The notes: generated by a model from the sequence alone, not told the origin. A stretch of 64,000 nt of DNA from Rhodanobacteraceae bacterium (GCA_003142815.1 PLNP01000040.1:3672-67671); one strand, 5' to 3'. Positions 2 through 22,716 are shown, counted from the first letter of the stretch. Numbers and translations: made by a program.

Positions 2-1135
2 AGCGGCTGGCGCGAGAAGTACGGCAAGCTGCCGTACGGCAAGGGCATCGGCGTCGCCTGCGGTTTCTTCATCAGCGGCAGCGCCCTGCCGATCCACTGG
101 AACCAGCGGCCCGCCAGCACGGTGCGGCTGACGGTCGAATTCGACGGCGCGGTGACGGTGTATTCGGGTGCGTCCGACATCGGCCAGGGCAGCGACACCG
201 TGCTGGCGATGATGGCGGCCGAAGTGCTGGGTGTGGACCTCGGCCAGGTCAAGGTGGTGGCCGCCGATACCCGGCTGACCCCGGTCGACCTCGGCAGTTA
301 CAGCTCGCGGGTGACCTTCATGGCCGGCAATGCCGCCCGCAACGCGGCGATTCGCATGCGCCGGCTGCTGGTCGCGGCGGCCTGCCGGCTGCTCGCGTTG
401 CCCGAGCCCGGGTATCCGGCGCCCGCCCCGCCCGAGGACGGCTTCCGCCAAGGCGGACGTGCGCCCGATTTCGACGCCGACTTCCTGGGCGCCAATCCCG
501 ACTACAGCGACGGCTTCGAGTTCGCCGACGGCCGCATCCGCCATCTCGACAGCGGCAAGCAAACCGGCTTCATCGCGGCCGTGCACGCGGCGATCGAAGG
601 TCCGGGCATCCTGCAGACGGTCGGCAACTACCGCGCACCCAAGCTCGGCGGCAGCTTCAAGGGTGCCGGCGCCGGCCTGTCGCCGGCGTACAGCTTCACC
701 GCCTTCATCGTCGAAGTCAGCGTCGATCCGGACACCGGCTTCGTCAAGGTTGAGCGCGCCACCTGCGCGCACGACTGCGGCTTCGCGCTGAACCCGCTGG
801 CGGTGCGCGGGCAGATCGAGGGCTGCTTCCACATGGGCATGGGCCAGGCACTGATGGAGGAAGTGCTGCACTACGACGGCGCGGTGCAGAACGCCGGCTT
901 TCTCGAATACAAGATTCCGTCGCCGTTCGAGCAGCCCGAAATCGACCTCGTGCCCTCGATCAGCGACGAGAGCGAAGGCCCGTTCGGCGCCAAGGAGGCC
1001 GGCGAGGGGCCGCTGGCGCCGGTGATCCCGGCGATCGCCAACGCCATCTTCGATGCGGTCGGCGTGCGCCTGTTCGAACTGCCGCTGCGCCCCGACCGGG
1101 TGCTGGCGGCGATGCACAAGGCCGCTGGCCGATGA
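2..1135 (+). CDS. hcrA: Xanthine dehydrogenase family molybdopterin-binding subunit, 4-hydroxybenzoyl-CoA reductase alpha (HcrA)-like; 5' truncated by window edge
   Basis: Motifs DIGQGSDT, GSYSSRVT, HDCGFALNPLAVRGQIEG and GPFGAKEAGE (catalytic Glu region); frame open from position 2; adjacent to an HcrB-like gene. Confidence 0.8.
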   Translation, partial: SGWREKYGKLPYGKGIGVACGFFISGSALPIHWNQRPASTVRLTVEFDGAVTVYSGASDIGQGSDTVLAMMAAEVLGVDLGQVKVVAADTRLTPVDLGSYSSRVTFMAGNAARNAAIRMRRLLVAAACRLLALPEPGYPAPAPPEDGFRQGGRAPDFDADFLGANPDYSDGFEFADGRIRHLDSGKQTGFIAAVHAAIEGPGILQTVGNYRAPKLGGSFKGAGAGLSPAYSFTAFIVEVSVDPDTGFVKVERATCAHDCGFALNPLAVRGQIEGCFHMGMGQALMEEVLHYDGAVQNAGFLEYKIPSPFEQPEIDLVPSISDESEGPFGAKEAGEGPLAPVIPAIANAIFDAVGVRLFELPLRPDRVLAAMHKAAGR

Positions 1136-2145
1136 GCGCACAACCGGCCCACTTCGAGTTCGAGCGTCCGGACAGCCTGGCGGCGCTGATTGCCCGACTC
1201 GCGCAGTTGTCCGCTGCGGGCCACGACTTTGCGCTCGCCGCCGGCGCCACCGACCTGATGCCGCAGATCAAGCAGGGGGTGAAAACACCCGCGCTGCTGA
1301 TCTCGCTCAATGGTCTGCCCGAACTGGCCGGTGTGCAGGCGCGTGCCGATGGCAGCCATCGCCTCGGCGCGCTGACCCGGCTCGCCGACGTCGCCAGCGA
1401 TGCGCGGCTGCGCCAGCACTATCCGGCCCTGTGCGCGGCCGCCGGCCGCGTCGCCAGCCCGCCGATCCGCCAGCGCGCCAGCCTCGGCGGCAACCTGCTG
1501 GTCGACAACCGCTGCATCTACATCAACCAGAGCCCGCTCAACCGCGCCGCCCACGCCGCCTGCTTCAAGGCTGGTGGCGAGGTCTGCCCCCTGGTCAAGT
1601 CGGCGGTACGCGGCGAGCTGCCGCAATGCCAGGCGCGTTTCGTCTCCGATACCGCACCGGTGCTGTTGCTGCTCGATGCGGTGCTGCGCCTGGTCTCGCC
1701 GCGCGGCGAGCGGCGCCTGCCGCTGGCGCAGTTCTACCGCGACGACGGCATGCAGCGTCATGTCCTCGCCAGCGACGAGGTGCTGGTCGCCATCGAGCTG
1801 CCGCCAGCGGACGGCCTGCGCATCGACTACGACAAGCTGGCGATCCGCCGGGCGCTGGACTTCCCCTCGCTGGGCATCGCCCTCGGCGTGCGTGCGGACA
1901 GCGCGGGCGCGCTCAGTGAACTGTCGCTGGCGATGACCGGCATCGGCACCCATCCCGGGTGCTGGCACTTCGCCGCCGCCGCGCACGAAAGTCCGAACGC
2001 CCTGCTCGACACCGCCTGCGCCGCCGCGCGCGATTCCGCCACGACCTACCAGCAGGACTTCTTCCCGCGTGACTATCGCAAGCGCATGATCGATGTGTTC
2101 ATCCGCAGGGCCGCGCAACGGCTGGGAGTCGCCAGATGGATGTGA
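1132..2145 (+). CDS. hcrB: FAD-binding subunit with [4Fe-4S] insertion, HcrB-like
   Basis: FAD motifs AAGATDL and ASLGGNLL, plus the four-Cys insert (RC...ACFKAGGEVC...QCQA) characteristic of 4-HBCR beta subunits; ATGA overlap with upstream gene. Confidence 0.85.
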   Translation: MSAQPAHFEFERPDSLAALIARLAQLSAAGHDFALAAGATDLMPQIKQGVKTPALLISLNGLPELAGVQARADGSHRLGALTRLADVASDARLRQHYPALCAAAGRVASPPIRQRASLGGNLLVDNRCIYINQSPLNRAAHAACFKAGGEVCPLVKSAVRGELPQCQARFVSDTAPVLLLLDAVLRLVSPRGERRLPLAQFYRDDGMQRHVLASDEVLVAIELPPADGLRIDYDKLAIRRALDFPSLGIALGVRADSAGALSELSLAMTGIGTHPGCWHFAAAAHESPNALLDTACAAARDSATTYQQDFFPRDYRKRMIDVFIRRAAQRLGVARWM

Positions 2146-3335
2146 GCCCGATGGATGTGAAGCAGGTCATGCGCGACTACTTCGTCGATCTCGGCGAGGC
2201 AGCGAAAGACCCCGGGCGAAAAGTCGCCTGGTGCACCTCAGTGGGTCCGGCCGAGATCCTGCGGGCGATGGGCTTTGCGGTCTACTTTCCGGAAAACCAC
2301 GGCGCCCTGCTCGGCGCCACCCGGGTGTCCACCGACACCATTCCGATCGCCAACGCGCACGGCTATTCGCCGGAGATCTGCAGCTACCTCACGTCCGATA
2401 TCGGCGCCTGTCTGAAGGGCGTGACCCCGCTGAGCAAGGCCTACGGCCTGGACAGCGTGCCGCGCCCGGATGTGCTGGTGTACTGCACCAACCAGTGCAA
2501 GGACGTGATGCACTGGTTCTCCTGGTACGCGCGGCGCTGGAATGTGCCGCTGCTCGGCATCCACCCGCCGAACCACCTGCCGGAGGTGCTGCCCGAACAC
2601 GTGGCCGACGTCGCCGCCCAGTATCGGCGCATGATCGGACGGCTCGAAGCCATCACCGGCACGCTGCTCGATCTGGAAGCGCTGCGCCTGGCCGTGGCCC
2701 GCTCGCGCGAGGCCACCGACCTGTGGGAAGCGGTGCTCAATACCGCACGGGCCCGACCGGCACCACTGAGCTTCTTCGATGGCGTGATCGTCATGGGCCC
2801 GATCGTGGTGCTGCGCGGCACCCAAGCCGCCACCGACTACTACCGGGCGCTGCTCGCCGAACTGCAGGGCAAGGTCGTCGCCAGGCAGGCGGCGGTGCCG
2901 GGCGAGCGCCTGCGCATCTACTGGGAGGGCATGCCGGTCTGGGGCCGGCTGAGGCACCTGTCCGACCTGTTCGCCAACAACCGCGCCACGGTGGTCGCCT
3001 CGACCTACTGCAATTCCTGGATCTTCTCCGACTTCGACGCCGCGCAACCGCTGGACAGCATGGCGCGGGCTTACCTGAAGATCTTCATCAATCGCGACGA
3101 CGCCTACAAGGAGGCCTACATCGAGCGACTGGCCGGCGAGTTCGGTATCGACGGCGTGGTCTACCACGCTGCCCGCACTTGCCCGAACAACAGCAACAGC
3201 TACTACAACCTGCCGCAGCGGCTGGCCGCCAGGGGCATTCCCGGCATCGTCGTCGATGGCGACCTGTGCGATCTGCGCTGCTTTTCCGACGAGCAGAGCA
3301 CCACCCTGATCGAGGCCTTCCTGGAAACGCTATGA
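2136..3335 (+). CDS. 2-hydroxyacyl-CoA dehydratase D-component / benzoyl-CoA reductase BcrB(BadE/BzdO)-like subunit
   Basis: Motifs WCTS, FPENHGA, ICSY, TNQC, ARTCPNNS and DGDLCD; alternative start at 2151. Confidence 0.8.
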   Translation: MDVSPMDVKQVMRDYFVDLGEAAKDPGRKVAWCTSVGPAEILRAMGFAVYFPENHGALLGATRVSTDTIPIANAHGYSPEICSYLTSDIGACLKGVTPLSKAYGLDSVPRPDVLVYCTNQCKDVMHWFSWYARRWNVPLLGIHPPNHLPEVLPEHVADVAAQYRRMIGRLEAITGTLLDLEALRLAVARSREATDLWEAVLNTARARPAPLSFFDGVIVMGPIVVLRGTQAATDYYRALLAELQGKVVARQAAVPGERLRIYWEGMPVWGRLRHLSDLFANNRATVVASTYCNSWIFSDFDAAQPLDSMARAYLKIFINRDDAYKEAYIERLAGEFGIDGVVYHAARTCPNNSNSYYNLPQRLAARGIPGIVVDGDLCDLRCFSDEQSTTLIEAFLETL

Positions 3336-4237
3336 GCACCGCCGCCGACTGCGATCGTCCGAGCACCGACGCCACGGTCCGCACCGAGGTGTTCTGGGGC
3401 GTGGACTGCGGCAGCGCCGAGATCAAGGTCGCCGCGCTCGACCGCGAAGGGCGGCTGCTGACCACGCGCAGGTGCCGCACCCTGTTCCCGCTGGTCGAGC
3501 ACGTGCACCGCAGCCTGGCCGGTCAAGGCGACGAACTCTCGGCGATTGCCGATGGCGACCGCGACCGGCTGCCGGCCGATGGCCGGCAGCCGGGCCTGCG
3601 CCCCGGCCACAAGGTGTTCGCCACCGGCTACGGGCGTCACCACATCGGCTTCGTGCAGGGCCAGCTGACCGAGATCAAGGCGCATTATCTCGGCGTGCAG
3701 CACCAGCTACGGCTGCAGCAGGACTACACCATCATCGACATCGGCGGCCAGGACGCCAAGGTGATCCGCGCCACCCCGAGCCGGGTCGAGCAGTTCGCCA
3801 TCAACCGCAAGTGCGCGGCCGGCACCGGTGCCTATATCGAGGAACTGGCGCACCGACTGGAAGTGCCGATGCAGGAGCTGCCGCGGCTCGCCGCCGCGCA
3901 CGACAAGGATCTCACCCTCAACAGCTACTGCACGGTGTTCTCCGGGCAGGAAGTGATCAAGCTGCTGATGCATGGCGAGCGGGTGGAGAACCTGATCCAT
4001 GCCCTGTATCGCTCGGTGGTCAAGCGGGTGCTGGAAATGACCGCGATCGATACCGACACCCTGGTGTTTTCCGGTGGCGTGATGAGCCACCACCCCATTC
4101 TCGTGCCGCTGTTCGCCGAGCGCTTCGACGAGGTGCGCACCATTCTCGCTCCCAATGCGCAGTTCTGCGGTGCGCTGGGCGCGGCAATCCATGGCATGAA
4201 CGAGGAGAGCGACGATGGCCTACCGAATCACCAGTGA
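3332..4237 (+). CDS. ATP-dependent CoA-substrate-specific enzyme activase (HgdC/BcrA/BzdQ family)
   Basis: GVDCGSAEIK, TGYGR, IDIGGQDAK, NRKCAAGTG, NSYCTVF and FSGGV; ATG at 3332 overlaps upstream TGA (C-terminal part of ORF 2093..4237). Confidence 0.9.
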   Translation: MSTAADCDRPSTDATVRTEVFWGVDCGSAEIKVAALDREGRLLTTRRCRTLFPLVEHVHRSLAGQGDELSAIADGDRDRLPADGRQPGLRPGHKVFATGYGRHHIGFVQGQLTEIKAHYLGVQHQLRLQQDYTIIDIGGQDAKVIRATPSRVEQFAINRKCAAGTGAYIEELAHRLEVPMQELPRLAAAHDKDLTLNSYCTVFSGQEVIKLLMHGERVENLIHALYRSVVKRVLEMTAIDTDTLVFSGGVMSHHPILVPLFAERFDEVRTILAPNAQFCGALGAAIHGMNEESDDGLPNHQ

Positions 4238-4505
4238 CTGCAACCTGTGCGACGCCTGCGTGCCCGAATGCCCGAACGAGGCCATCACAGCCGGCGCCAA
4301 CATCTACACGATCGACCCCGCCAAGTGCACCGAATGCGTCGGTTTCTTCGACGAAGCGCAATGCGCGGCGGTGTGCCCCCAGGAATGCTGCGAGCCCGAC
4401 CCCGACCGCGCCGAGCCCGAGGCGGCATTGCTCGAGCGCGCCCGCAGTCTGCATCCGGACGAGGATTTCTCGGGCGATGTGCCCTCGCGCTTTTCCAGCC
4501 CCTGA
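4215..4505 (+). CDS. fdx: 2[4Fe-4S] ferredoxin, YfhL/Alvin type
   Basis: CNLCDACVPECP and CTECVGFFDEAQCAAVCP motifs with C-terminal helix. Confidence 0.92.
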   Translation: MAYRITSDCNLCDACVPECPNEAITAGANIYTIDPAKCTECVGFFDEAQCAAVCPQECCEPDPDRAEPEAALLERARSLHPDEDFSGDVPSRFSSP

Positions 4506-4539
4506 TCGCTGCATCCGCCCCTCCCACGCAGGCAGCCCC

Positions 4540-6423
4540 ATGAACCCGGTCCACGCCGCTGTCGATCTGCCCGATCCGGACCTGATCCAGGTCCAGACCC
4601 TGGACGAGATCACCGTCAAGTTCGCCGGCGATTCCGGTGACGGCATCCAGTTGGCCGGGCAGAAGTTCGCCCTGCTGGCCAGCGCCGCCGGCGAGACCGT
4701 GCGCACCATGCCCGACTACCCGGCCGAAATCCGGTCGCCGGTCGGCACCCTCGGTGGTGTCTCCGGCTTCCAGGTGCGTACCGGCAGCGCTGGCATTCAC
4801 ACCCCCGGCGACCGCATCGATCTGCTGGTGGCGTTGAATCCGGCCGCGCTGCGCACCAACCTGCCAGAGCTCAAGGCCAACGGCATCGTCATCCTCGACG
4901 AAAGTGCATTCACCGCAACCAATCTGGCCAAGGCAGGTTACCCCGGCAATCCGCTGGAAGACGGCTCGTTACGCGACTACCGGGTGTTCCCGGTGCAGAT
5001 CGGCAAGCTCACCCGCGGCGCGCTCAAGGGTCTGGCGCTGTCGACCAAGCAGACTACGCGCAGCCGTAATTTCTTCGCGCTGGGGCTGATTTGCTGGCTG
5101 TTCCCGCGCCCCAGGGCGGCGGTCGATGAGTGGATCGAGCAGCGTTTCGCCGCCACCCCGGAACTGGCCAAGGCCAACCATCGCGCCTTCGACGCCGGCT
5201 GGAACTACGGCGAGACCGCCGAGTATTTCGTCAGCCCGTTGCACGTGGCCACCAACCAGCGCATGCGCGAAGCCGGGGTATATCGCTTAGTCACCGGCAA
5301 TGCCGCGCTCGCCAAGGGCCTGGTGCAGTCTGCCCGCCGCGCCGGGCTGTCGCTGTTCCTGGGCGGCTATCCGATCACCCCGGCGACCGAGGTGATGCAG
5401 GAACTCAGCCGCTATCGCGATCCCGACGTGCACATGTTCCAGGCCGAGGACGAGATCGCCGCGATCGGCAGCGCCATCGGCGCCGCCTTCGCCGGCGCGC
5501 TGGGCGCCACCAGCACCTCCGGCCCGGGGCTGTCACTGATGGGCGAGTTCCTCAACCTCGCGGTGATCGCCGAGCTGCCACTGGTGGTGATCGACGTGCA
5601 GCGTGCCGGCCCGTCCACTGGCATCCCGACCAAGTCCGAGCAGGCCGACCTGCTGCAGGCCCTGCACGGCCGACACGGCGAATCGCCGCTGCCGGTGCTG
5701 GCCGCCGCCACGCCCGCGGACTGTTTCGCGACCGTGGTCGAGGCCAGCCGCATCGCCCTGCGCTACATGACGCCGGTGGTCGTGCTCAGCGACCTGTCGC
5801 TGGCCAGCGGTGCCGAAGTCTGGCGCGAGCCGGCGCTGGACGAGCTGCCCGAGTTCACCCTGCACCGCAGCGTCGCCGCGGCGGATTTCAAACCCTACCG
5901 GCGCGATCCGGAAACCCTGGCTCGGCCCTGGGCGGTGCCCGGCGACCCCGGTATGGAGCACGTCATCGGTGGCCTGGAGAAAGCCGGCGAGAGCGGTGCG
6001 GTGTGCTACGAAGCGGAAAACCACGCGGCGATGGTGCAGCTGCGCCACGACAAGGTCGCCGGCATCGCCCGCGATTATCCGGCCACGGCGGTGCATGGCG
6101 GCACCGATGCCTGCCTGCTGCTGCTCGGTTGGGGCAGCACCTTCGGCGCCATCCGCGAGGCCACCGACCGCCTGCGCCAGCGCGGCCGTTCGGTGGCCTG
6201 CCTGCACCTGCGCCACCTCAACCCGCTGCCACACGACTTGGGCGAGGCGCTGCGCCGCCACCGCGCGGTGCTGGTAATCGAGAACAACAGCGGCCAACTC
6301 TGGCAGCAGCTGCGCGCCGAGTACCTGCTCGACCTGCAGCGCCTGAACAAGGTGCAAGGCACCGCGTTCCGCATCGCCGAGATCGTCGAGGCCACCGAAT
6401 CGCTGCTGGAGACTCTGCCATGA
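4540..6423 (+). CDS. korA: 2-oxoacid:ferredoxin oxidoreductase alpha subunit (fused gamma-alpha)
   Basis: KFAGDSGDGIQLAG, GYPITPATE, QAEDEIAAI, TSTSGPGLSL and DVQRAGPSTGIPTK motifs; ATG at 4540. Confidence 0.92.
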   Translation: MNPVHAAVDLPDPDLIQVQTLDEITVKFAGDSGDGIQLAGQKFALLASAAGETVRTMPDYPAEIRSPVGTLGGVSGFQVRTGSAGIHTPGDRIDLLVALNPAALRTNLPELKANGIVILDESAFTATNLAKAGYPGNPLEDGSLRDYRVFPVQIGKLTRGALKGLALSTKQTTRSRNFFALGLICWLFPRPRAAVDEWIEQRFAATPELAKANHRAFDAGWNYGETAEYFVSPLHVATNQRMREAGVYRLVTGNAALAKGLVQSARRAGLSLFLGGYPITPATEVMQELSRYRDPDVHMFQAEDEIAAIGSAIGAAFAGALGATSTSGPGLSLMGEFLNLAVIAELPLVVIDVQRAGPSTGIPTKSEQADLLQALHGRHGESPLPVLAAATPADCFATVVEASRIALRYMTPVVVLSDLSLASGAEVWREPALDELPEFTLHRSVAAADFKPYRRDPETLARPWAVPGDPGMEHVIGGLEKAGESGAVCYEAENHAAMVQLRHDKVAGIARDYPATAVHGGTDACLLLLGWGSTFGAIREATDRLRQRGRSVACLHLRHLNPLPHDLGEALRRHRAVLVIENNSGQLWQQLRAEYLLDLQRLNKVQGTAFRIAEIVEATESLLETLP

Positions 6424-7391
6424 GCCAGACCACCGTCATTCCGGCAGCCACCGCGGAGCTGCCGACACCCCCCGACCGCGCGCACTTCCTGAGCGGCACC
6501 GCACCGCGCTGGTGCCCCGGTTGCGGCTGCTTCGGGGTGCTCAAGTCGCTGACCGCCACCTATGCCCGCCTCGGCGTGCCGCGTGAGCGGCTGGTCACCA
6601 TCTCCGGCATCGGCTGCACCTCGCGCCTGCCGTACTACACCGGCACCTATGGCTTTCATACCTTGCACGGTCGCGCCCCGAGCGTGGCTCTGGGCGTCAA
6701 GCTGGTCAATCCTGAACTCTCGGTCTGGGTGATCTCCGGCGACGGCGATGCGCTGGCGATCGGCACCAACCACACCCTGCATCTGTTGCGGCGCAACCCC
6801 GATATCAAGATGCTGCTGCTGAACAATCAGATCTACGGACTGACCAAGGGCCAAGCCTCGCCCACCAGCCCGCTCGGTCTGGTCACGCGCTCGACCCCCT
6901 ATGGCGTGGCCGACGCTCCGATCAATCCGGTCAACCTGGCGCTGGCCGCCGGCGCCAGCTTCGTCGCCCGTGTCGCCGACACCAACGGCGCGATGATGGA
7001 GGAGGTATTCGCGGCGGCGCACGCCCATCGCGGCGTGGCCTTCGTCGAGGTGTTGCTCAATTGCGTCACCTTTCACGACGGCGCTTACGCCATGATCACC
7101 GACAAAGACACACGCGACGAGTACGCGCTGGCGATGTGTCCGGGCCAGCCGTTACTCTACGGCAAGCAGCAGCGCAAGGTGCTGGTGGCCGACAACGGTC
7201 GGATCCTGGCGCTGCCGCTGGCCGAGGGGGAGGCGGTGCCCGACCAAGCCCTGCGCCACGACCCGCAGGCGGGCGACGCCGGCCTGGCCCAGCAGCTTGC
7301 CCTGATGGGGCCGCCCGATCTGCCCTGCGCCCTGGGTATCTTCAGGCAGGTGCAGGCACCGGTCTACGGCCTTGACCCGAAGCCCGACTAG
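6420..7391 (+). CDS. korB: 2-oxoacid:ferredoxin oxidoreductase beta subunit (TPP-binding)
   Basis: WCPGCG, SGIGCTSR, HTLHGRA, SGDGDALAIG and NNQIYGLTKGQASPT. Confidence 0.92.
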   Translation: MSQTTVIPAATAELPTPPDRAHFLSGTAPRWCPGCGCFGVLKSLTATYARLGVPRERLVTISGIGCTSRLPYYTGTYGFHTLHGRAPSVALGVKLVNPELSVWVISGDGDALAIGTNHTLHLLRRNPDIKMLLLNNQIYGLTKGQASPTSPLGLVTRSTPYGVADAPINPVNLALAAGASFVARVADTNGAMMEEVFAAAHAHRGVAFVEVLLNCVTFHDGAYAMITDKDTRDEYALAMCPGQPLLYGKQQRKVLVADNGRILALPLAEGEAVPDQALRHDPQAGDAGLAQQLALMGPPDLPCALGIFRQVQAPVYGLDPKPD

Positions 7392-7400
7392 GAGGAGCGG

Positions 7401-7832
7401 ATGGACCACCTATACGTGCATCGTGCTCCCGTGCGTTTCACCCACACCGATCCCGCCGGCTACGTGTTCTTCCCGCGCTTTTTCGAGATGTTCCAGGCTG
7501 CGGTCGAAGACTGGTTCAGCGACTGCCTCGGACTGAACTACGCCGAGCAGATCGTGCAGCATGGCGTCGGCTTCCCGACCGCGCATACCGAATGTGATTT
7601 CGTGCGTCCCTGCCGGCTCGGCGAAACGCTGGAACTGCGGTTGGTGCTGGAAAAAGTCGGCCGCAGCTCGCTGACCCTGCGTTTCGATGGCAGCGTGCAG
7701 GGTGAGACGCGGCTGCGCGCGCGCTCGGTGCTGGTGACGATCGAGATGCAATACGGCCGCCCGCAACCGCTCGGCGCCGAGCTGCGCGAGCGCTTGCAGG
7801 CCTATCTGGCGCTCTGCCAGGCCGATGCCTGA
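7401..7832 (+). CDS. 4-hydroxybenzoyl-CoA thioesterase family (hotdog fold) acyl-CoA thioesterase
   Basis: VRFTHTDPAGYVFFPRFFE motif; AGGAGG RBS at 7391. Confidence 0.85.
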   Translation: MDHLYVHRAPVRFTHTDPAGYVFFPRFFEMFQAAVEDWFSDCLGLNYAEQIVQHGVGFPTAHTECDFVRPCRLGETLELRLVLEKVGRSSLTLRFDGSVQGETRLRARSVLVTIEMQYGRPQPLGAELRERLQAYLALCQADA

Positions 7833-8418
7833 GCTGGCCGCGCTGATCTTGGCCGCCGGTGCCGGCCGGCGCTTCGGGGCGATCAAGCAACTGGCGCCGG
7901 TACGCGGCGAACCGCTGATCCGCCATGCCATCGCCCTGGCCGAGGCGGTGGCGCCGGGCGCTGTGCAGGTGGTGCTCGGCGCCCATCGCGCGCAGATCGC
8001 CGCCCAACTGCCGCAGGGCGTGCCGGCCATTGAACACCCCGGCTGGGCCGAGGGGCTCGGCAGCAGCCTGGCGGCCGGCATGGTCGGATTGCGCGGACAG
8101 CCCGACGGCGTGCTGTTGCTGCTGGCCGACCAGATCGCCTTGCGCGCGGACGCCCTGCAGGCGCTGGCGGCACGCTGGCGCACCTTGCCCGAGACGGTGT
8201 TCTGCGCGTTTTATGGCGGCCAGCCCGGGGTGCCGGCGATCTTTCCACGCCGGCTGTTCGCCGAACTGGCCGCCTTGCGCGGCGAGCGCGGCGCCAAGCC
8301 GCTGCTGCTGCGCGAGAGCGGCCCGGCCACGCAACTGGCCATGCCCGAGGCGGCCATCGACATCGACACCGCCGAGGATCTGGCGCGCTGGCAGGCGAGC
8401 TCAGCAGCCTGGTCTTAG
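7825..8418 (+). CDS. mocA: Molybdenum cofactor cytidylyltransferase (MocA-like nucleotidyltransferase)
   Basis: LILAAGAGRRFGAIKQL, GLGSSL, LLLADQ, GVPAIFPR and DIDTAEDL. Confidence 0.85.
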   Translation: MPELAALILAAGAGRRFGAIKQLAPVRGEPLIRHAIALAEAVAPGAVQVVLGAHRAQIAAQLPQGVPAIEHPGWAEGLGSSLAAGMVGLRGQPDGVLLLLADQIALRADALQALAARWRTLPETVFCAFYGGQPGVPAIFPRRLFAELAALRGERGAKPLLLRESGPATQLAMPEAAIDIDTAEDLARWQASSAAWS

Positions 8419-8583: not shown

Positions 8584-9885
8584 TCAGGGAAAGTGGTCGA
8601 TGCGCCGGCATTCGGTCCCGTACCGGCGGGTGGCGCTCAGCAGGTTCAGCCCAAGCAGGGCGAAGTCGGCCAGCCACATTACTGCGGCCGGGCGCAGCAG
8701 GGCCGGCAGCAGCACTGCGGCCAGCAGCACCGCCAGCGCTGCCAGGTGCAGGTAGAACTGCTGCCGGCTGCGCGGTTCCGGCAGTATCGACTTCATGTTC
8801 GGCAGGACGATGCGGTGGCGCACCTCGATTCGGGTGGCGAGACGCTGCTGCAGATGCAGCCAGACCAGGAACGGTACGATCTTGTAGAGCATGCCGTTGA
8901 CCACCGACAGCGCGAAGCCGAGCAGGAACAGCAAGGTCGCCGCCAGGGCCAGGCTTGCCGCCACCGCAGGCGGCGCCAGCCGGGACGCGGCGCCGATCGC
9001 CGCCGCCAGCAGCAGCCCCGCCATGCCCAGTCGCCAGAAGTAGAGGCTGGTGTCGCCGACCTTGCGTCGGCGCTGAGCCAGCAGGCGCAGGGTGATCAGC
9101 GCAAAGATGGCCAGCGCCGCCGCCAGCAGCAGCGCCGGCAGCTGCGCCAGCGGCCAGCCACGCAATACCGCCAGCGAGTGCCAGCCCAGCAGCGCGAACA
9201 TGCCGGCCGCCAGCCAGCGGCGCAGCCGCGGCGGGTAGGGCGGCGTCATCTGGAACATCGGCACCAGCTGCCAGGCTACTACCGCGACCAGGGTCGCGAT
9301 CCAGCCGAGCAGGCCCCAGGCCAAGTGCAGGTCGGTCAGCGGCCAGCGCAGCAGCGGCAGCCCAAGGCCACTATGGCCGAGCCCGAGCGACAGGCCGAGA
9401 CCAACCGTCAACGCCAAGCCGAGCAGGGCCCAGCGCATCCCGCGCACGCTGTCCTGCAAATGCGGCGCCCGTGCCAGGCCAAACCCCATCACCGCCAGGA
9501 ACCCGCCGAGGCCAAGTCCAAGCAGCACCACCGCCACACGGAAACCATCCTGACCGACGCCCAGGAAGCCGGCTGCCAGACTCAGCGTACCCAGCACCAG
9601 CAGGCCATGGCACAGCCCGCCAACCAGCCGCGGCCGCGTCACCCGCACCCCGGCCAGCACCGGTAGCATCTGCAACAGCGCCCCGCACATCACCATGGCC
9701 AGCACGCCGAGCACCAGCAGGTGGCTCAGCGCCAGCGCGCCCACGCTCCAGCGCGACGCCAGCACGTCGGGGCCGAGCCACAGCAGCAGGCCGGCGGCGG
9801 CCAGGCCGAACAGCGGCGCGCTCAGAAAAAAACGCAGCGGCACCGACAGTGGCGGCGCCTGTTCCAGCGACAGTCCCGCGTTCAC
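8584..9885 (-). CDS. Polytopic membrane protein with His-containing helices (NnrS/heme-copper-oxidase-I-like uncharacterised family)
   Basis: About 12 hydrophobic segments; SHLLVLG...GALLQMLPV, HLAWGLLGW and GMLYKIVPFLVWLH; GTG start. Confidence 0.65.
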   Translation of the reverse strand: MNAGLSLEQAPPLSVPLRFFLSAPLFGLAAAGLLLWLGPDVLASRWSVGALALSHLLVLGVLAMVMCGALLQMLPVLAGVRVTRPRLVGGLCHGLLVLGTLSLAAGFLGVGQDGFRVAVVLLGLGLGGFLAVMGFGLARAPHLQDSVRGMRWALLGLALTVGLGLSLGLGHSGLGLPLLRWPLTDLHLAWGLLGWIATLVAVVAWQLVPMFQMTPPYPPRLRRWLAAGMFALLGWHSLAVLRGWPLAQLPALLLAAALAIFALITLRLLAQRRRKVGDTSLYFWRLGMAGLLLAAAIGAASRLAPPAVAASLALAATLLFLLGFALSVVNGMLYKIVPFLVWLHLQQRLATRIEVRHRIVLPNMKSILPEPRSRQQFYLHLAALAVLLAAVLLPALLRPAAVMWLADFALLGLNLLSATRRYGTECRRIDHFP

Positions 9886-10142
9886 TCGTCGCCTGCCGCT
9901 GCCTGCAGATCACCGGCGCGCCAGACCAGCAGCTCGCAGCGGCCCTCCACGACCGCGACCACCCGCCAGTCGAAGCCGCGCTGCTGAAGCATCGAAAACA
10001 GCGGCAGCGGTTCCCGGCTGACCAGCGCACGCAGGCGCTGACCGGGGAGCAGCCGGTCGCTGCCGGCGAGGATCCGCTCCATCGGCTCGCATGGCGGCAG
10101 GCCCCGCACGTCGAGGTTCAGATCGGTGGCTGCCATCGCCAT
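9882..10142 (-). CDS. DUF2249 / TusA-like small protein
   Basis: LDVRGLPPCEPMERIL...REPLPLFSML pattern; coupled to neighbours by overlaps. Confidence 0.75.
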   Translation of the reverse strand: MAMAATDLNLDVRGLPPCEPMERILAGSDRLLPGQRLRALVSREPLPLFSMLQQRGFDWRVVAVVEGRCELLVWRAGDLQAAAGDE

Positions 10143-10570
10143 CAGTGCGCCTGCATGCGTTCCAGCAACGCCTCGGCACGGTCGGCCAGGGCGCGATCGC
10201 ACATCGGATAAAGCATCTGCTCTTCCTTCATGTTGTGCTGCTGGATCAGGATGTTGAGGGTTTCACCGAAGCCGAGGAAGTCGTCCAGCTCGCCGCTTTC
10301 CAGCGCCTGCCGCATCTGCGCCATCATCGCCCGTATCTGCTCGTGTTCCATGCGCATCACCGCAGTCGGGCCGCCGGCCATGCCGCTGCGCGCCTCGAAT
10401 TCGGGAAACAGCACACTCTCCTCGATCGACAGGTGCTGCGCCATCGCCGCTTCAAACTCGGCGTAGGCCGCGCGGGCGGCATCGCGGTCGCCGTCATTGG
10501 CAGCGTTTTCGGCCTTGGCGAACAGCCCGTCGCAGACGCGATGATCGGCAGTGAGGAAGTCGGTCAGCAT
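10142..10570 (-). CDS. Hemerythrin-like domain protein
   Basis: DHRVCD, HLSIEESVLFP, MRMEHEQIR and QHNMKEEQMLYP His/Glu di-iron motifs. Confidence 0.88.
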   Translation of the reverse strand: MLTDFLTADHRVCDGLFAKAENAANDGDRDAARAAYAEFEAAMAQHLSIEESVLFPEFEARSGMAGGPTAVMRMEHEQIRAMMAQMRQALESGELDDFLGFGETLNILIQQHNMKEEQMLYPMCDRALADRAEALLERMQAH

Positions 10571-11646
10571 GGCGGGGCCTCGTGCGTTCGGATAGCACAA
10601 GACTCTGGCACACGGCCGCAGCGCTGGCCTTGCTCTGCATCAAGCCGTTGCACTTGTGTCTGCAGGCGTGCCGCCAGTGACAGCGCGATGGCGGCGGCAC
10701 CGCGGCCGCCCAAGGGCAGCCCGGCCGGCGACTCCAGCCACCCACCCAGGCGTTCGCGGACACTGCCCGGCAGCGTGGCGAACAAGTCGTCACGCCGCGA
10801 TTCCGGGCCAATCAGGCCGATATAGCCCGGCAGCTGCGGCCAGCCCGCCAGCGTCGCCAGCACCTCGCGGTCGTGGCCGAAGTGGTGGGCCATGACCAGC
10901 ACGGCGTCGTAGCGGCCGCCCTCGGTCGGAGTAACCGGCAGCAGGCGTTCGACCTGGGCCCTGCAGGCGGCCCAGTCCGAGCGCGGCTCGATCAGATCCA
11001 CCCGCCAGCCGAGCTCGTCCAGCAGCGGCAACAGGATTTCGCTTTCCGGCCCGGCACCGCAGATCAACACCCTCGGCAGCGGCGCCAACTGCAGGGCCCA
11101 GATGGCGCCATCGGTTTCCGCCGCCGCGGTCCCGACGTCCACCGGCAGGGACCATTCGGCCTGCAGGGCGCCGGTCTGCATGCACAGCCGACCCTGCGTG
11201 GCGTAACTCAGCCGCAGCGCTTTGCCATGTTCACGGTAGCTGGCCAAGATCGGGTGCAGGCCGGGCAGCGCCGCCAGCGGCAGCACCACCACCCGCTGCC
11301 GGCCACGGCATCCGGCGCCGGAGCCGGAAAACACATCGGACAGATCACGGTTGTCGAGGTCGAGCAGGCGCACCCGGCCATCGGCCTGGGCGGCATCGGC
11401 CGCCGCCAGCACATCGCCTTCGAGACAGCCCGGACTGACCCAGCCGCAGCGTCGGCCCGCGGCGCTGAAATGGACCAGGGTTCCCGCTTTGGCATAGGCA
11501 TGGCCGGCGACTTCGAGCACCAGCGCCAGCGCACCGGGTTGCGGCTGGCCGATATCCTCGAGGCAGGCGTCGAGCGCCGCCTTGCTGGGCGCACCGGGGG
11601 CGTGGCGCGCTGGCAGTACTGATTCCGGGTTCATGGGGGTGATCAC
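10564..11646 (-). CDS. xdhC: XdhC/CoxI family molybdoenzyme maturation factor
   Basis: GHAYAKAG, GWVSPGCLEGD, GAGCRG, ICGAG, YIGLIGPESR and PAGLPLGG motifs. Confidence 0.85.
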   Translation of the reverse strand: MITPMNPESVLPARHAPGAPSKAALDACLEDIGQPQPGALALVLEVAGHAYAKAGTLVHFSAAGRRCGWVSPGCLEGDVLAAADAAQADGRVRLLDLDNRDLSDVFSGSGAGCRGRQRVVVLPLAALPGLHPILASYREHGKALRLSYATQGRLCMQTGALQAEWSLPVDVGTAAAETDGAIWALQLAPLPRVLICGAGPESEILLPLLDELGWRVDLIEPRSDWAACRAQVERLLPVTPTEGGRYDAVLVMAHHFGHDREVLATLAGWPQLPGYIGLIGPESRRDDLFATLPGSVRERLGGWLESPAGLPLGGRGAAAIALSLAARLQTQVQRLDAEQGQRCGRVPESCAIRTHEAPPC

Positions 11647-15428: not shown

Positions 15429-15431
15429 GGC

Positions 15432-19152: not shown

Positions 19153-19155
19153 GGG

Positions 19156-20274: not shown

Positions 20275-20284
20275 CTGTGGGTCC

Positions 20285-20728
20285 TCAGTTCCCGGGCTGC
20301 TGCGCCGCACCGGCGGCACCGGCCCGCAGCTGTTGCGCACCGCGCCGCAGCTGGTCTGGTTCCACGGGAAGAATCGCCGGCACTTGGGCGATTTCGATGA
20401 ACCCGGCGATCAACTCGCCGCCGCGATCGCGGTATTCGCTCCACCACACGCCCTGGATCCCGGTCTCGTTGATCGTTGACTCGCCGTCCCCCTTCAACGT
20501 GATGGTGACCTCACCGGGCCCCAATGCCTTCAGCAATTGCTCGCGATCGCCCGGGCTCATTGGCAAGCTGCGCAAATCGATGGCGCCTGGCTCCCCACCA
20601 TCGGCCAGCCGGTCGAGTTGCGTGGCAATCTCGATCAGAATCGCCGTCACGCCGGCGCCGATGGTGCCAGTGGACGCCGCCGGGGTCCGCGACACGATCC
20701 GAATCGGAATTTCGCCGAGCCGGCTCAT
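20285..20728 (-). CDS. Hydrogenase expression/formation protein (HupH/HyaF C-terminal-type)
   Basis: IDLRSLPM, LGPGEV and ETGIQGVWW motifs. Confidence 0.8.
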   Translation of the reverse strand: MSRLGEIPIRIVSRTPAASTGTIGAGVTAILIEIATQLDRLADGGEPGAIDLRSLPMSPGDREQLLKALGPGEVTITLKGDGESTINETGIQGVWWSEYRDRGGELIAGFIEIAQVPAILPVEPDQLRRGAQQLRAGAAGAAQQPGN

Positions 20729-21340: not shown

Positions 21341-21357
21341 TCTTTGCTTAGCGAAAA

Positions 21358-22713: not shown

Positions 22714-22716
22714 GCG

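Follow-up and report, generated by a model that had tools for sequence, protein, structure and literature searches.

A benzoyl-CoA degradation cluster with an uncharacterised ligase, PanE-type reductase, HGD-D and activase module in a Rhodanobacteraceae genome

The window, by which we mean the whole 64,000-nucleotide stretch of a Rhodanobacteraceae genome analysed here (GCA_003142815.1, PLNP01000040.1:3672-67671), opens with nine tightly packed genes on the + strand (positions 2-8418), as reported in the first-pass annotation and confirmed by gene calls, translations and domain searches, with Pfam and NCBIfam matches far above chance. From hcrA to the mocA-like gene, successive junctions measure -4, -10, -4, -23, +34, -4, +9 and -8 nt, and as these lengths are mostly negative, most of the nine genes overlap. 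The 3' part of an hcrA-like gene (377 of 794 codons; 2-1135; Pfam MoCoBD_2, 6e-64) is followed by an hcrB-like FAD subunit gene with a four-cysteine [4Fe-4S] loop insert (1132-2145; FAD_binding_5, 2e-38), by a single-gene, HadB/BcrB-like [4Fe-4S] radical-enzyme subunit of 399 aa, here termed HGDD (2136-3335; Pfam HGD-D, 3e-68), and by an ATP-dependent activase of the HgdC/BcrAD family (301 aa; 3332-4237; BcrAD_BadFG, 1e-29). Next come an Alvin/YfhL-type 2x[4Fe-4S] ferredoxin (96 aa; 4215-4505), a korA-like alpha subunit with fused gamma-alpha architecture (627 aa; 4540-6423), a korB-like TPP-binding beta subunit (323 aa; 6420-7391; TPP_enzyme_C, 1e-30), a 4HBT-fold (YbgC/FadM-like) acyl-CoA thioesterase (143 aa; 7401-7832; 4HBT_2, 2e-11; 4HBT, 4e-10) and a mocA-like molybdenum-cofactor cytidylyltransferase (197 aa; 7825-8418; NTP_transf_3, 7e-33). 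Convergent to these, on the - strand, lie a 433-aa membrane protein (8584-9885), which has no family match in Pfam or NCBIfam and is syntenic in the closest Gammaproteobacteria loci (L011, L012, L013, L017, L042, L043 and L046); a DUF2249 protein (9882-10142; L001 gene 17747-18007) and a hemerythrin-domain protein (10142-10570; L001 gene 18007-18435), both with Pfam matches and both syntenic in the closest relatives; and a 356-aa XdhC/CoxI-type Mo-cofactor insertion chaperone (10564-11634; PF02625 and PF13478).

Although it had been described as a self-contained operon, the nine-gene block makes up the 3' third of a one-strand cluster of 25 genes and ~26 kb. In its 5' part the order is had-oah-dch-tetR-bcrC-bcrB-bcrA-bcrD-ligase-panE-like-fadB-like-thiolase1-SDR-thiolase2-hcrC, and in its 3' part hcrA-hcrB-HGDD-activase-fdx-korA-korB-thioesterase-mocA, with the convergent xdhC downstream; the hcrC, CoA ligase and bcrC genes that it had been suggested to seek upstream are all there. 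Had (457 bits, cut-off 339), Oah (524, 464), BcrC (507, 421), BcrB (719, 487) and BcrD (342, 313) exceed their NCBIfam equivalog cut-offs, whereas BcrA (551 against 578) and Dch (201 against 292) stay below theirs and are best matches only. The cluster encodes oxygen-independent breakdown of aromatic acids via benzoyl-CoA, of the Thauera type, and in this sense the earlier reading of the block as anaerobic aromatic machinery holds. The intact upstream genes were read on the window's own ENA contig (L059); the same gene order recurs in a JGI (L060) and a second ENA (L061) assembly, at least three independent assemblies in all share the arrangement, the overlap between L001 and the window (13,335 nt) has 0 mismatches, and operon proteins and right-hand proteins were each found on 11 contigs of 50-200 kb. 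A chimeric contig, the eventuality that the first-pass annotation had raised against its own interpretation, can be dismissed. The island that carries the cluster spans ~30 kb and has ~68% GC, against ~61% for the genome, with a fall from 0.70 to 0.58 at window position ~12,000 marking the end of the high-GC island. Ribosomal protein S9 clusters at 90% identity or more with Dokdonella and Rhodanobacteraceae, and the host is a Dokdonella-related Rhodanobacteraceae bacterium from peat, in agreement with the Xanthomonadales affiliation proposed at the outset.

The complete hcrA gene begins 1250 nt upstream of the window, and the full-length protein (L001:6616-9000) aligns to the alpha subunit of 4-hydroxybenzoyl-CoA reductase (1RM6_A) with 602 bits, the next match being CoxL, of the XDH family, at 271 bits. 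HcrB aligns to its Thauera aromatica counterpart (1RM6_B) with 166 bits and with all four insert cysteines in register, and these (C128, C144, C152 and C166) are invariant in 31 of 31 sequences. Such a four-cysteine [4Fe-4S] loop is a known feature of 4-hydroxybenzoyl-CoA reductase, in which it serves inverted electron flow. Judged by sequence, the Hcr-like enzyme is closest, by a wide margin, to 4-hydroxybenzoyl-CoA reductase among solved structures, as the original Hcr assignment had it. The divergence noted for HcrA is also apparent, as the protein scores 813.5 bits on TIGR03194 (cut-off 994.55), HcrB reaches 220 bits on TIGR03195 (cut-off 404.55), and HcrA carries an insertion at residues ~549-606 (motif FRQGGRxPDF..FLGxNPDYxDGF) that is shared by every full-length orthologue in the alignment (28 sequences) and adds ~33 residues relative to Thauera aromatica-type HcrA. 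Given the sub-threshold score and the insertion, the substrate may therefore not be 4-hydroxybenzoyl-CoA. Sub-threshold similarity across HcrABC and the conserved insertion might be read as signs of an oxidative xanthine-oxidase-family hydroxylase, acting on an aromatic or heteroaromatic (CoA) substrate, rather than of a dehydroxylating reductase; but the invariant loop in HcrB, the co-encoded low-potential ferredoxin and ferredoxin-reducing enzyme, and the wide margin to the nearest relative make this very improbable. The Hcr subclade is best described as an uncharacterised variant within a known kind of pathway.

The block brings its own electron supply, as first proposed. The ferredoxin exceeds the cut-off of the YfhL family model NF033683 (99.1 against 86 bits), and its translation contains the motifs CxxCxxCxxxCP and CxxCx8CxxxCP, the latter with the spacing typical of Alvin-type ferredoxins. 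KorA passes TIGR03710 (OAFO_sf; 620 bits, cut-off 483) with Pfam domains POR, POR_N and PFOR_II, and KorB scores 240 bits on the PorB_KorB subfamily (cut-off 262); together they constitute a two-subunit 2-oxoacid:ferredoxin oxidoreductase, whose specificity for 2-oxoglutarate we infer only. By homology, oxidation of a 2-oxoacid, probably 2-oxoglutarate, by KorAB would re-reduce the ferredoxin, from which electrons may reach the Mo/FAD/Fe-S enzyme by way of HcrB's additional [4Fe-4S] cluster; the enzyme would reductively remove a para-hydroxyl group from an aryl-CoA thioester. Provision for cofactor maturation, also part of the initial interpretation, is represented by MocA within the block and by the convergent XdhC, which are predicted to make and insert a cytosine-dinucleotide Mo cofactor. 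Most of the original gene labels stand; those of the thioesterase (43 bits, cut-off 141), MocA (106.5 bits on TIGR03310, cut-off 186), HcrA and HcrB are below their cut-offs and hold only at family level. In L023, L048, L054 and L056, too, a thioesterase gene comes after the activase or the module-B genes.

All parts of a Thauera aromatica-type benzoyl-CoA cluster (had-oah-dch-bcrCBAD-fdx, with korAB serving as ferredoxin reductase) and of HcrCAB are present here, including the Alvin-type ferredoxin, the two-subunit KorAB, the three-subunit Hcr with its [4Fe-4S] insert, and MocA and XdhC for the MCD cofactor. Unlike in that known system, they are gathered into one same-strand cluster of 25 genes on an island of foreign composition within a Rhodanobacteraceae genome; HcrA, HcrB, HcrC, BcrA and Dch are below equivalog cut-offs, the HcrA insertion is additional, and so is a module comprising the ligase, the PanE-like reductase, HGDD and the activase. 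We know of no model-organism benzoyl-CoA cluster that contains this module.

HGDD and its activase had been taken for a dearomatising pair. The activase gene start overlaps the HGDD stop, the two adjoin in 39 of 41 genome loci, and the activase exceeds the TIGR00241 cut-off (152 against 125 bits) with PDB matches to MbdQ (114 bits), HgdC (108) and HadI (108). Benzoyl-CoA reductase (BCR)-type dearomatisation by the HGD-D subunit and activase next to Hcr, within a self-contained unit of nine genes, is favoured by their family-level matches to BcrB and BcrA/D models and their proximity to Hcr, ferredoxin and KorAB; yet the same strand and contig encode, 10-18 kb further upstream, a complete, canonical BcrCBAD with Had, Oah and Dch, HGDD and the activase also occur where Hcr or BCR genes are not nearby, and one catalytic-type gene with one ATPase gene does not make a four-subunit enzyme. 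We regard that proposal as scarcely tenable. Canonical BcrCBAD shares a cluster with HGDD here and in L056, L048 and L030, and as HGDD and the activase are additional to it, they are not the dearomatising enzyme; they belong instead to a separate, conserved HadB-like module with ligase and PanE-type partners.

The best PDB match of HGDD is HadB, the alpha subunit of HAD (3O3M_A, 162 bits), followed by MbdO (118) and BzdO (65), and its AF2 model (pLDDT 86.6) gives Foldseek TM-scores of 0.89 for HadB, 0.86-0.87 for MbdO and BzdO, and 0.68-0.77 for DCCP, HadC, BzdN and MbdN. Scores on equivalog models are well below threshold for HadB (202 bits, cut-off 750), BcrB (128, cut-off 487) and the double-cubane proteins (67, cut-off 350). 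Within the orthologue group C33, E53, C82, C121, C292, C349 and C382 are invariant, C82, C121, C349 and E53 matching the [4Fe-4S] ligands and catalytic glutamate of HadB and BzdO (PMC11971306). As a single-gene protein with six invariant cysteines, HGDD might be a DCCP-like double-cubane [8Fe-9S] reductase, a homodimer with its own ATP-dependent reductase that would act on a small, non-CoA substrate; C33 and C292 match two distal-subcluster ligands of BzdN by sequence order and secondary structure, and homodimeric DCCPs are viewed as the family's archetype (PMC11971306). DCCP with DCCP-R (PDB 6ENO, 7YYL) likewise pairs one structural with one ATPase gene. HGDD is nonetheless clearly more distant from DCCP (TM 0.76; 41 bits with the profile), its fold siding with the CoA-ester-binding catalytic subunits; the double-cubane model is missed by far, C382 is lost in representatives at 40-51% identity though C33 and C292 are retained there, and the conserved CoA-ligase partner suggests a CoA-ester substrate. 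A DCCP-like role is accordingly highly unlikely.

Ligase-PanE-...-HGDD-activase synteny is conserved in 25-27 of 41 genome loci, spanning Gamma- and Alphaproteobacteria, Myxococcales, Acidobacteria and Bdellovibrionota, and the AMP-ligase and PanE-type partners are conserved in six or more bacterial lineages; a natural PanE-HGDD fusion also exists (P0422). This is a widespread, uncharacterised four-gene module. In loci devoid of aromatic genes, Ligase-HGDD-activase has a convergent gene of the PanE family and an Rnf complex as neighbours. In L040 and L045 the gene immediately after the activase encodes an aminotransferase, PadE/G/H genes lie downstream in L048, and Geothermobacter ehrlichii and a Malonomonas MAG carry a 61%-identical orthologue with IOR-alpha, a PaaK-like ligase and a CoA-transferase, FadB-Thl-SDR-Thl-Had-Oah-Dch being encoded there on the opposite strand; the Geothermobacter locus also holds an acyl-CoA dehydrogenase gene beside the activase.

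Class I benzoyl-CoA reductase catalytic subunits (BcrB, BzdO and MbdO; PDB 8S02, 9G87) share with HGDD their family, fold, three cysteines and glutamate, and receive ATP-driven electrons through a BcrAD-family ATPase. HGDD might be a novel aryl-CoA reductase, homomeric and ATP-dependent, or an enzyme that eliminates substituents, acting on ortho-hydroxy-, ortho-amino- or otherwise substituted benzoyl-CoA beyond the reach of BcrCBAD and Hcr, once the adjacent ligase had activated the acid. HGDD and the activase are always within or beside benzoyl-CoA pathway genes where those exist, the fold is nearly as close to MbdO and BzdO as to HadB, C33 occupies the position of BzdO Ser44 beside the catalytic Fe-OH2 (PMC11971306), a position that MbdO also fills with a cysteine, and a minimal ligase-HGDD-activase unit would suffice to activate and then reduce. 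Such an enzyme would, however, have no need of the conserved and even fused PanE-type 2-oxoacid reductase; HGDD also lacks a BcrC/BzdN-type double-cubane partner to store low-potential electrons and is accompanied by a single ATPase gene, the ligase is only remotely related to benzoate-CoA ligases (51 bits), and the HadB model outscores that of BcrB. We consider this reading unlikely, the gene associations suggesting that HGDD and its activase are not a ring reductase.

The same associations are consistent with a dehydratase. (R)-2-hydroxyacyl-CoA dehydratases, for which HadBC/HadI of Clostridioides difficile, the phenyllactate dehydratase FldBC/FldI of Clostridium sporogenes and HgdAB/HgdC were compared, share with HGDD the alpha-subunit fold, three cysteines and a glutamate, and an adjacent HgdC-type activase; their systems follow the same logic of 2-oxoacid reduction, CoA activation and dehydration, and an aminotransferase, CoA-transferase or acyl-CoA dehydrogenase is found near HGDD in some lineages. 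To our knowledge, all characterised members are alpha-beta heterodimers, with CoA-transferases and D-2-hydroxyacid dehydrogenases of other families. In contrast, HGDD has no second HGD-D gene beside it in the loci mapped, and thus no beta partner, is 29-35% identical to HadB and far below the HadB equivalog cut-off, and carries the extra invariant cysteines C33, C292 and C382; the missing partner, the low score and the extra cysteines weigh against a dehydratase. Most lineages have an AMP-ligase in place of the CoA-transferase, and the reductase is PanE/ApbA-type rather than a D-2-hydroxyacid dehydrogenase. The hosts also differ, being respiring Proteobacteria, Acidobacteria and Myxococcota rather than fermenters, and the HGDD product would be oxidised, not reduced.

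We propose, with confidence evenly balanced for the explanation as a whole, that the cluster combines a benzoyl-CoA pathway and Hcr-dependent dehydroxylation with a 2-hydroxyacyl-CoA dehydratase module. By homology, BcrCBAD would dearomatise benzoyl-CoA with ATP and the same ferredoxin, and Dch, Had and Oah would open the ring. HGDD, as a putative HadB-like, homomeric [4Fe-4S] enzyme, would together with its ATP-driven activase form the catalytic part of the module and dehydrate an (R)-2-hydroxyacyl-CoA by ketyl-radical chemistry, the least certain step, to which gene association points. The neighbourhood suggests phenyllactyl- or 4-hydroxyphenyllactyl-CoA, from the 2-oxoacids of phenylalanine and tyrosine, as the likeliest substrate, so that arylpyruvate and aryllactate would yield cinnamoyl- or 4-coumaroyl-CoA; FadB and thiolase could shorten these by beta-oxidation to benzoyl- or 4-hydroxybenzoyl-CoA, and Hcr could convert the latter to benzoyl-CoA. 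The module thus probably feeds phenylalanine and tyrosine into the benzoyl-CoA pathway. FadB-Thl1-SDR-Thl2 could, however, belong wholly to the lower pathway (3-hydroxypimelyl-CoA to acetyl-CoA), because these genes are co-operonic with Had-Oah-Dch in Geothermobacter.

The nearest solved relatives of the ligase are malonyl-, oxalyl- and o-succinylbenzoyl-CoA ligases (~100 bits), which suit an aryllactate and a dicarboxylic 2-hydroxyacid about equally. HGDD and the activase might then be a 2-hydroxyglutaryl-CoA dehydratase or hydratase, linking glutaconyl- or glutaryl-CoA of the lower pathway, or glutamate, to 2-oxoglutarate with the PanE-like reductase, the ligase or thioesterase, and KorAB as partners, oxidation by KorAB yielding reduced ferredoxin for benzoyl-CoA reductase and Hcr. 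The position of fdx-korAB-thioesterase directly after HGDD and the activase, the small-dicarboxylate ligase relatives, the resemblance of Thl1 to 3-oxoadipyl-CoA thiolases and the acyl-CoA dehydrogenase in Geothermobacter would suit this, and the neighbouring aminotransferase fits glutamate too. Yet neither an acyl-CoA (glutaryl-CoA) dehydrogenase nor a glutaconyl-CoA decarboxylase is encoded in the window's cluster, it would be futile for a ligase and a thioesterase to act on one acid, KorAB is missing from most module-bearing loci (14-15 of 41), and the neighbouring IOR/PaaK and PadEGH genes suggest aromatic 2-oxoacids; we hold this reading to be quite unlikely. The first-pass interpretation is overall partly supported. 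The benzoyl-CoA route was already known as a kind of pathway, and the HGDD module constitutes an uncharacterised variant.

Metatranscriptome contigs ~91% identical to the cluster derive from a related organism and may contain DNA; one of 1951 nt spans the 3' end of the HGDD gene, the activase and ferredoxin genes, and the 5' end of korA. These contigs hint at expression in that related organism.

The nine genes at window 2-8418 are the 3' end of a 25-gene, approximately 26-kb benzoyl-CoA pathway cluster of the Thauera type, a description that, taken alone, is very probably correct. The window opens within hcrA, and the upstream sequence was read from public assemblies of the same DNA, reached via two members of the ligase protein cluster (P0242 and P0407). 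A match of 13,335 nt with zero mismatches to the 113.8-kb ENA contig ERZ19980073 c_000000002949 (locus L001), and the occurrence of two further window proteins at the expected offsets on the same record, place the window at positions 45,513-109,512 of that contig. Positions 25,807-47,606 of the same contig (locus L059) carry, intact and on the same strand, had (353 aa), oah (361 aa), a dch-like gene (258 aa) and tetR; bcrC (386 aa), bcrB (424 aa), bcrA (463 aa) and bcrD (288 aa); genes for an AMP-forming ligase (599 aa), a PanE/ApbA-family reductase (307 aa) and a FadB-like 3-hydroxyacyl-CoA dehydrogenase/enoyl-CoA hydratase (669 aa); two thiolases (420 and 393 aa) with a short-chain dehydrogenase (SDR, 252 aa); and hcrC (172 aa), hcrA (794 aa) and hcrB. 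Had (457 > 339), Oah (524 > 464), BcrC (507 > 421), BcrB (719 > 487) and BcrD (342 > 313) score above their NCBIfam equivalog cut-offs; BcrA (551 vs 578) and Dch (201 vs 292) are assigned by best match only, under the cut-off. These upstream genes and their assignments identify the block as the last nine genes of the cluster. The first-pass annotation had proposed a compact, self-sufficient reduction unit, and had suggested looking upstream for hcrC, a CoA ligase and a bcrC-like gene; all three are present on L059, and the supposed unit is part of an ordinary large cluster.

A chimeric contig, which would have separated this block from the remainder of the window, is excluded as far as the assemblies show. 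Gene order is as in L059 in two more assemblies, one from JGI (L060) and a further one from ENA (L061). The protein encoded by the third gene of the block (hereafter HGDD), and likewise each of two proteins encoded at window 24 kb and 47 kb, maps to 21 contigs, of which 11 have lengths of 50-200 kb. An older NCBI MAG of the same population (GCA_003159285.1, locus L057) carries a split oah with approximately 54 codons missing and a changed frame (L057:2964-3883), and a frameshifted bcrA that runs into bcrD as a single 747-aa ORF (L057:7758-10001). As the other assemblies of the population are intact, we treat these lesions as specific to that assembly, and as either assembly error or strain variation. 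Pseudogenisation of oah and bcrA on the window's own contig was rejected, given that L059, L060 and L061 carry oah, bcrA and bcrD intact.

Open reading frame listing and translation, together with Pfam and NCBIfam assignments, bear out the presence of nine plus-strand genes within 2-8418, with successive junctions of -4, -10, -4, -23, +34, -4, +9 and -8 nt. These encode the C-terminal part of a xanthine-oxidase-family Mo-binding subunit (best family HcrA) and a FAD subunit (best family HcrB); HGDD itself, a 399-aa member of the HGD-D family (2136..3335); a 301-aa BcrAD/HgdC-type ATPase, or activase (3332..4237); a YfhL/Alvin-type 2x[4Fe-4S] ferredoxin (NF033683, 99.1 bits, cut-off 86); KorA-like alpha (TIGR03710, 620 against 483) and TPP-binding beta (240 bits, slightly under the subfamily cut-off of 262) subunits of a two-subunit 2-oxoacid:acceptor oxidoreductase; a 4HBT-fold thioesterase; and a MobA/MocA-like nucleotidyltransferase. 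The labels HcrA, HcrB, 4-hydroxybenzoyl-CoA thioesterase and MocA originally attached to four of these hold at the level of family, but not of equivalog. A scan for promoters and terminators inside the operon returned no signal above chance.

In Thauera aromatica, an Alvin-type ferredoxin gives electrons to both benzoyl-CoA reductase (BCR) and 4-hydroxybenzoyl-CoA reductase, and receives them in turn from a two-subunit 2-oxoglutarate:ferredoxin oxidoreductase whose genes lie close to bcr. By analogy, electron supply by the ferredoxin and KorAB is reasonable here, as the translated ferredoxin has the Alvin-type spacing CxxCx8CxxxCP and KorAB is of the two-subunit type according to NCBIfam. The built-in electron supply postulated for the nine genes is thus plausible in kind, but would serve the whole cluster rather than the block.

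The three subunits of the Hcr-like enzyme are encoded together, with hcrC (Fer2/Fer2_2) immediately 5' of hcrA, and hcrA and hcrB in the window. Grouping of the Mo subunit with an unrelated xanthine dehydrogenase (XDH) clade is not borne out: full-length HcrA matches the T. aromatica 4-hydroxybenzoyl-CoA reductase alpha subunit (1RM6_A) at 602 bits, with approximately 50% identity in the aligned core, compared with 271 bits for the next-best xanthine-oxidase-family structure. HcrB aligns end to end with 1RM6_B and matches all four cysteines of the [4Fe-4S] loop, which in the T. aromatica enzyme is where low-potential electrons enter; these cysteines are conserved throughout a set of 31 sequences, made up of the window protein, its T. 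aromatica counterpart and 29 orthologues. All three subunits nevertheless score under their NCBIfam equivalog cut-offs (TIGR03194/03195/03193: alpha, 813.5 < 994.55; beta, 220.1 < 404.55; gamma, 149.3 < 257.8). HcrABC remains the top-scoring family for alpha and beta, and two other XDH-family models score slightly higher for gamma. In addition, HcrA carries an insertion of approximately 33 residues, with the motif FRQGGRxPDF...FLGxNPDYxDGF, in all full-length orthologues of this cluster type. The sub-cut-off scores and the conserved insertion together define, on sequence criteria, a distinct conserved subclade. Its chemistry is likely to be reductive para-dehydroxylation of an aryl-CoA, with 4-hydroxybenzoyl-CoA as the default but unproven substrate. 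An Alvin-type ferredoxin, KorAB, MocA and XdhC are co-encoded with the enzyme, and a cytosine-dinucleotide Mo cofactor would accord with the presence of MocA within the operon and of XdhC downstream of it.

HGDD and its activase were considered as a dearomatising BCR and rejected as such, given that canonical BcrCBAD is encoded upstream in the same cluster, that one HGD-D gene and one ATPase gene occupy the position in the loci mapped, whereas a class I BCR has four different subunits, namely a catalytic and a double-cubane protein of the HGD-D family and two BcrAD-family ATPases, and that HGDD and activase fall well below the class I equivalog cut-offs (BcrB, 128 < 487; BzdO, 70 < 449; BcrA, 100 < 578; BcrD, 46 < 313). 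BcrCBAD also shares a cluster with HGDD at loci L056 and L048, and in an Emcibacter MAG (L030) the two are separated by 4.5 kb. The nearest solved protein by sequence is HadB, the alpha subunit of (R)-2-hydroxyisocaproyl-CoA dehydratase, at 162 bits, followed by MbdO (118) and BzdO (65). An AlphaFold model of HGDD (pLDDT 86.6) superposes on HadB with a TM score of 0.89, on BCR catalytic subunits with 0.86-0.87, and on double-cubane cluster proteins (DCCPs) and proteins of the HadC/BzdN/MbdN type with 0.68-0.77. In alignments with HadB and BzdO (the latter as described in PMC11971306), residues C82, C121 and C349 take the places of the three cluster ligands, and E53 that of the catalytic Glu; all four are invariant in 46 orthologues and kept in nearly all of approximately 100 full-length representatives. 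Three further cysteines, C33, C292 and C382, are likewise invariant in the 46 orthologues, of which C33 and C292, but not C382, are kept in representatives down to approximately 40% identity. C33 aligns at the position of BzdO Ser44, which neighbours the Fe-bound water (PMC11971306). The activase is an HgdC-type activator (TIGR00241, 152 > 125) and adjoins HGDD in 39/41 genomic loci. No second HGD-D ORF that could encode a beta subunit lies beside HGDD in the window, in the genome loci mapped or in L054-L056, and HGDD is apparently a HadB-like enzyme that works without a beta subunit. The six invariant cysteines of the orthologues bring to mind a DCCP-like double-cubane reductase, in which six Cys ligate an [8Fe-9S] cluster. 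We down-weight this rival because the fold is nearer to HadB and because some of the wider relatives retain C33 and C292 but have lost C382; the score against the DCCP model (67 < 350) is also low. The sources consulted offer no name beyond the generic for relatives of HGDD, which form a continuum of 1611 matches (E <= 1e-3) in a library-wide search. Among these, the representative protein P0422 (728 aa) is a natural fusion of a PanE/ApbA domain (approximately residues 3-307) with an HGDD-type domain (326-722) that is 51% identical to the window protein. Two other database proteins, P0424 (603 aa) and P0435 (768 aa), bear N-terminal extensions and lack the cluster cysteines.

A genome scan returned 41 loci with 62-93% identical HGDD, all in MAGs, from Lysobacterales and other Gammaproteobacteria, Emcibacter and other Alphaproteobacteria, Myxococcales, Blastocatellia, Chloracidobacterium, Bacteriovoracaceae and Deltaproteobacteria. 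Besides the activase, HGDD is accompanied by HcrA and HcrB in 29/41 loci, a PanE-like reductase and SDR in 27, FadB and the ligase in 25, thiolases in 22, KorAB in 14-15, and the thioesterase and MocA in 11. Two loci (L036 and L056) carry the module of ligase, PanE-type reductase, HGDD and activase with hcrCAB absent, and ligase, HGDD and activase stand alone in eight loci of marine Gammaproteobacteria. At L024 this trio adjoins a PanE-family gene in convergent orientation and the genes of an Rnf complex, an enzyme able to reduce ferredoxin. In the MAG concerned (OFTM312, JAJFLA010000003.1), two separate copies of ligase-HGDD-activase (L024 and L025) lie on one 90-kb contig, one of them adjoining a PanE-family gene and a complete rnf operon with apbE. 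An aminotransferase gene is located directly 3' of the activase in L040 and L045. The surroundings of L044, L045 and L022, which include cytochromes, a sigma-54 regulator, a radical SAM protein and an ABC transporter, gave no functional clue. In two marine gammaproteobacterial MAGs (L022:12131-14205 and L047:12156-13703), an amidase, which passes the NCBIfam 'indoleacetamide hydrolase' cut-off (583 > 532), and TonB-dependent receptors lie 3' of the activase, with a 166-aa TPP_enzyme_C fragment between activase and amidase in L022.

A 61%-identical orthologue with all six cysteines is encoded in Geothermobacter ehrlichii, a strict anaerobe available in culture, and in a Malonomonas MAG. It shares the locus with its activase, with ligases of the ADP-forming CoA and PaaK-like types, with a CoA-transferase and with the alpha subunit of indolepyruvate:ferredoxin oxidoreductase, an acyl-CoA dehydrogenase also being present in Geothermobacter; the opposite strand carries FadB-Thl-SDR-Thl-(thioesterase)-Had-Oah-Dch. 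At locus L048, genes for phenylglyoxylate dehydrogenase lie downstream. In the positions of the 2-oxoacid reductase and CoA-activating enzyme of a 2-hydroxyacyl-CoA dehydratase pathway, the conserved partners of HGDD are putative functional analogues from other families, a PanE/ApbA-type reductase and an AMP-ligase or CoA-transferase. The evidence does not support calling the ligase a benzoate-CoA or 4-hydroxybenzoate-CoA ligase.

The quartet of 2-oxoacid reductase, CoA-activating enzyme, HadB-like enzyme and activase follows the same logic as the 2-hydroxyacid pathways of amino-acid-fermenting clostridia, albeit with protein families that are partly different, and for this reason we propose a three-step dehydratase scheme. 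The PanE-like enzyme would yield the (R)-2-hydroxy compound by reduction of a 2-oxoacid, either free or as the CoA ester, the ligase would form the thioester, and HGDD would dehydrate this to the enoyl-CoA, primed by one ATP-energised electron from the activase, which would itself be reduced by ferredoxin. The lactates of phenylalanine and tyrosine would be the most likely substrates, as the module sits between bcr, beta-oxidation and hcr genes, and adjoins arylpyruvate and phenylacetate enzymes in Desulfuromonadales; we hold this aryllactate assignment to be possible, if somewhat short of an even prospect. FadB and thiolase might then convert cinnamoyl- or 4-coumaroyl-CoA to benzoyl- or 4-hydroxybenzoyl-CoA, the latter to be dehydroxylated by Hcr, before dearomatisation and ring opening by BcrCBAD, Dch, Had and Oah, with the SDR and second thiolase acting at the level of 3-hydroxypimelyl-CoA. 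This model accounts for every gene of the cluster, and would explain hcrCAB as an optional insert forming the tyrosine branch. Gene identities and associations are observed, and substrates and directions of reaction are inferred; we consider the overall model evenly balanced between right and wrong. One rival to an aryllactyl-CoA dehydratase is a 2-hydroxyglutaryl-CoA function linked to KorAB; others are a new homomeric aryl-CoA reductase or eliminase and the DCCP-like reductase discussed above.

The type of pathway, in which a Thauera-type benzoyl-CoA route is combined with Hcr, ferredoxin and 2-oxoglutarate:ferredoxin oxidoreductase, is well known, and the Dokdonella-like peat bacterium is a new member. 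Literature searches returned no description of the ligase/PanE/HGDD/activase module (including searches on BCR in Xanthomonadales and on phenyllactate dehydratase in respiring anaerobes), of a HadB-like enzyme with extra conserved cysteines and no beta subunit, or of the insertion-bearing Hcr subclade. The sole related statement found is a 2026 hypothesis for a benzene-degrading sulfate reducer, in which phenylpyruvate is converted via phenyllactyl-CoA dehydratase to benzoyl-CoA (PMC13416013). Together with the AMP-ligase and PanE-type reductase, HGDD could provide respiring anaerobes with an O2-independent cinnamate route from phenylalanine and tyrosine, via arylpyruvate and aryllactate, to benzoyl-CoA, which would differ from the known phenylacetate/phenylglyoxylate route. 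That HGDD founds a homomeric, extra-Cys branch of the BCR/2-hydroxyacyl-CoA dehydratase (HAD) radical-enzyme family, and that this cinnamate route, a dedicated insertion-bearing Hcr para-dehydroxylase and an island moving between phyla all belong to the same picture, is a tentative reading which, as a conjunction, we regard as somewhat less likely than not. HGDD is nonetheless a testable lead, being uncharacterised, abundant in metagenomes and 61-93% identical across phyla, and Geothermobacter ehrlichii is a cultured carrier in which experiments are feasible. If HGDD is an aryllactyl-CoA dehydratase, it would supply the enzyme for a route from phenylpyruvate via cinnamoyl-CoA to benzoyl-CoA that for respiring anaerobes is so far no more than a hypothesis (PMC13416013); if a reductase, it would constitute a minimal ATP-driven aryl-CoA reductase. 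Either outcome would widen the known BCR/HAD family.

The cluster, with the convergent genes as far as xdhC, has a GC content of 64-72%, compared with 57-63% in the flanks on either side. This high-GC block of approximately 30 kb extends from approximately L059:1680, at the start of had, to window ~12,000, with a sharp step at both edges, and its composition suggests that the cluster was acquired as an island. No tRNA or integrase gene was found at the edges of the block, and the sole tRNA in the window is tRNA-Gln at 53288-53361. A complete, mobile kit for O2-independent ring degradation would be present in bacteria mostly seen as aerobes or denitrifying heterotrophs, such as Rhodanobacteraceae, Thermomonas, Emcibacter, Blastocatellia and Myxococcales from peat, groundwater, sludge and marine sediment, which bears on the turnover of phenolic and protein-derived aromatic carbon in anoxic peat.

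A relative of the cluster seems to be transcribed in a different habitat. A mine-drainage metatranscriptome (run X26) contains approximately 91%-identical contigs over hcrA, HGDD, activase, ferredoxin and korA, one of which (1951 nt, equivalent to window 2964-4914) joins the 3' end of HGDD to the activase, ferredoxin and 5' end of korA across three junctions. This is weakly consistent with polycistronic RNA, as the evidence consists of assembled contigs and DNA carry-over is possible. Peat metatranscriptome runs from the same studies, of which one (X30) was compared, contained essentially no matching contigs, and relatives at approximately 91-95% were confined to the mine-drainage metatranscriptome and some soil 'RNA-Seq' runs.

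As for the host, the ribosomal protein S9 encoded in the window clusters at >=90% identity with Dokdonella fugitiva, a Dokdonella sp. and a Rhodanobacteraceae MAG; the labels carried by near relatives of the cluster genes are Xanthomonadales, Xanthomonadaceae, Lysobacterales or Thermomonas, and the matching runs are peat and soil metagenomes. The window encodes COQ7 (55742-56386), which catalyses an O2-dependent step of ubiquinone synthesis, and two Crp/Fnr-family regulators (31693-32508, minus strand; 57500-58213, plus strand). It also contains an Isp-type [NiFe]-hydrogenase locus (14463-29136), with genes for NicO, the large subunit, an HdrD-like Fer4/CCG protein, a 219-aa protein, the small subunit, HupH and HycI on the minus strand, and hypA, hypB, hypC, hypD, hypX (formyltransferase and crotonase domains), hypF and hypE on the plus strand. 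Use of H2 by the host is probable, and the presence of HypX may point to hydrogenase maturation under O2. On the strength of COQ7, the two regulators and this hydrogenase with HypX, the host looks like a facultative organism.

On the minus strand at 8584-10570 are genes for a 433-aa membrane protein without a family match, a DUF2249 protein and a hemerythrin-domain protein, which adjoin xdhC in the closest relatives and might serve in sensing or repair of O2 or NO damage to Fe-S enzymes. Also on the minus strand are a 51-aa DDE transposase fragment at 35484-35639 and, at 48833-52590, genes for an ECF sigma factor and, after it, for a Ser/Thr kinase of 933 aa that contains TPR repeats.
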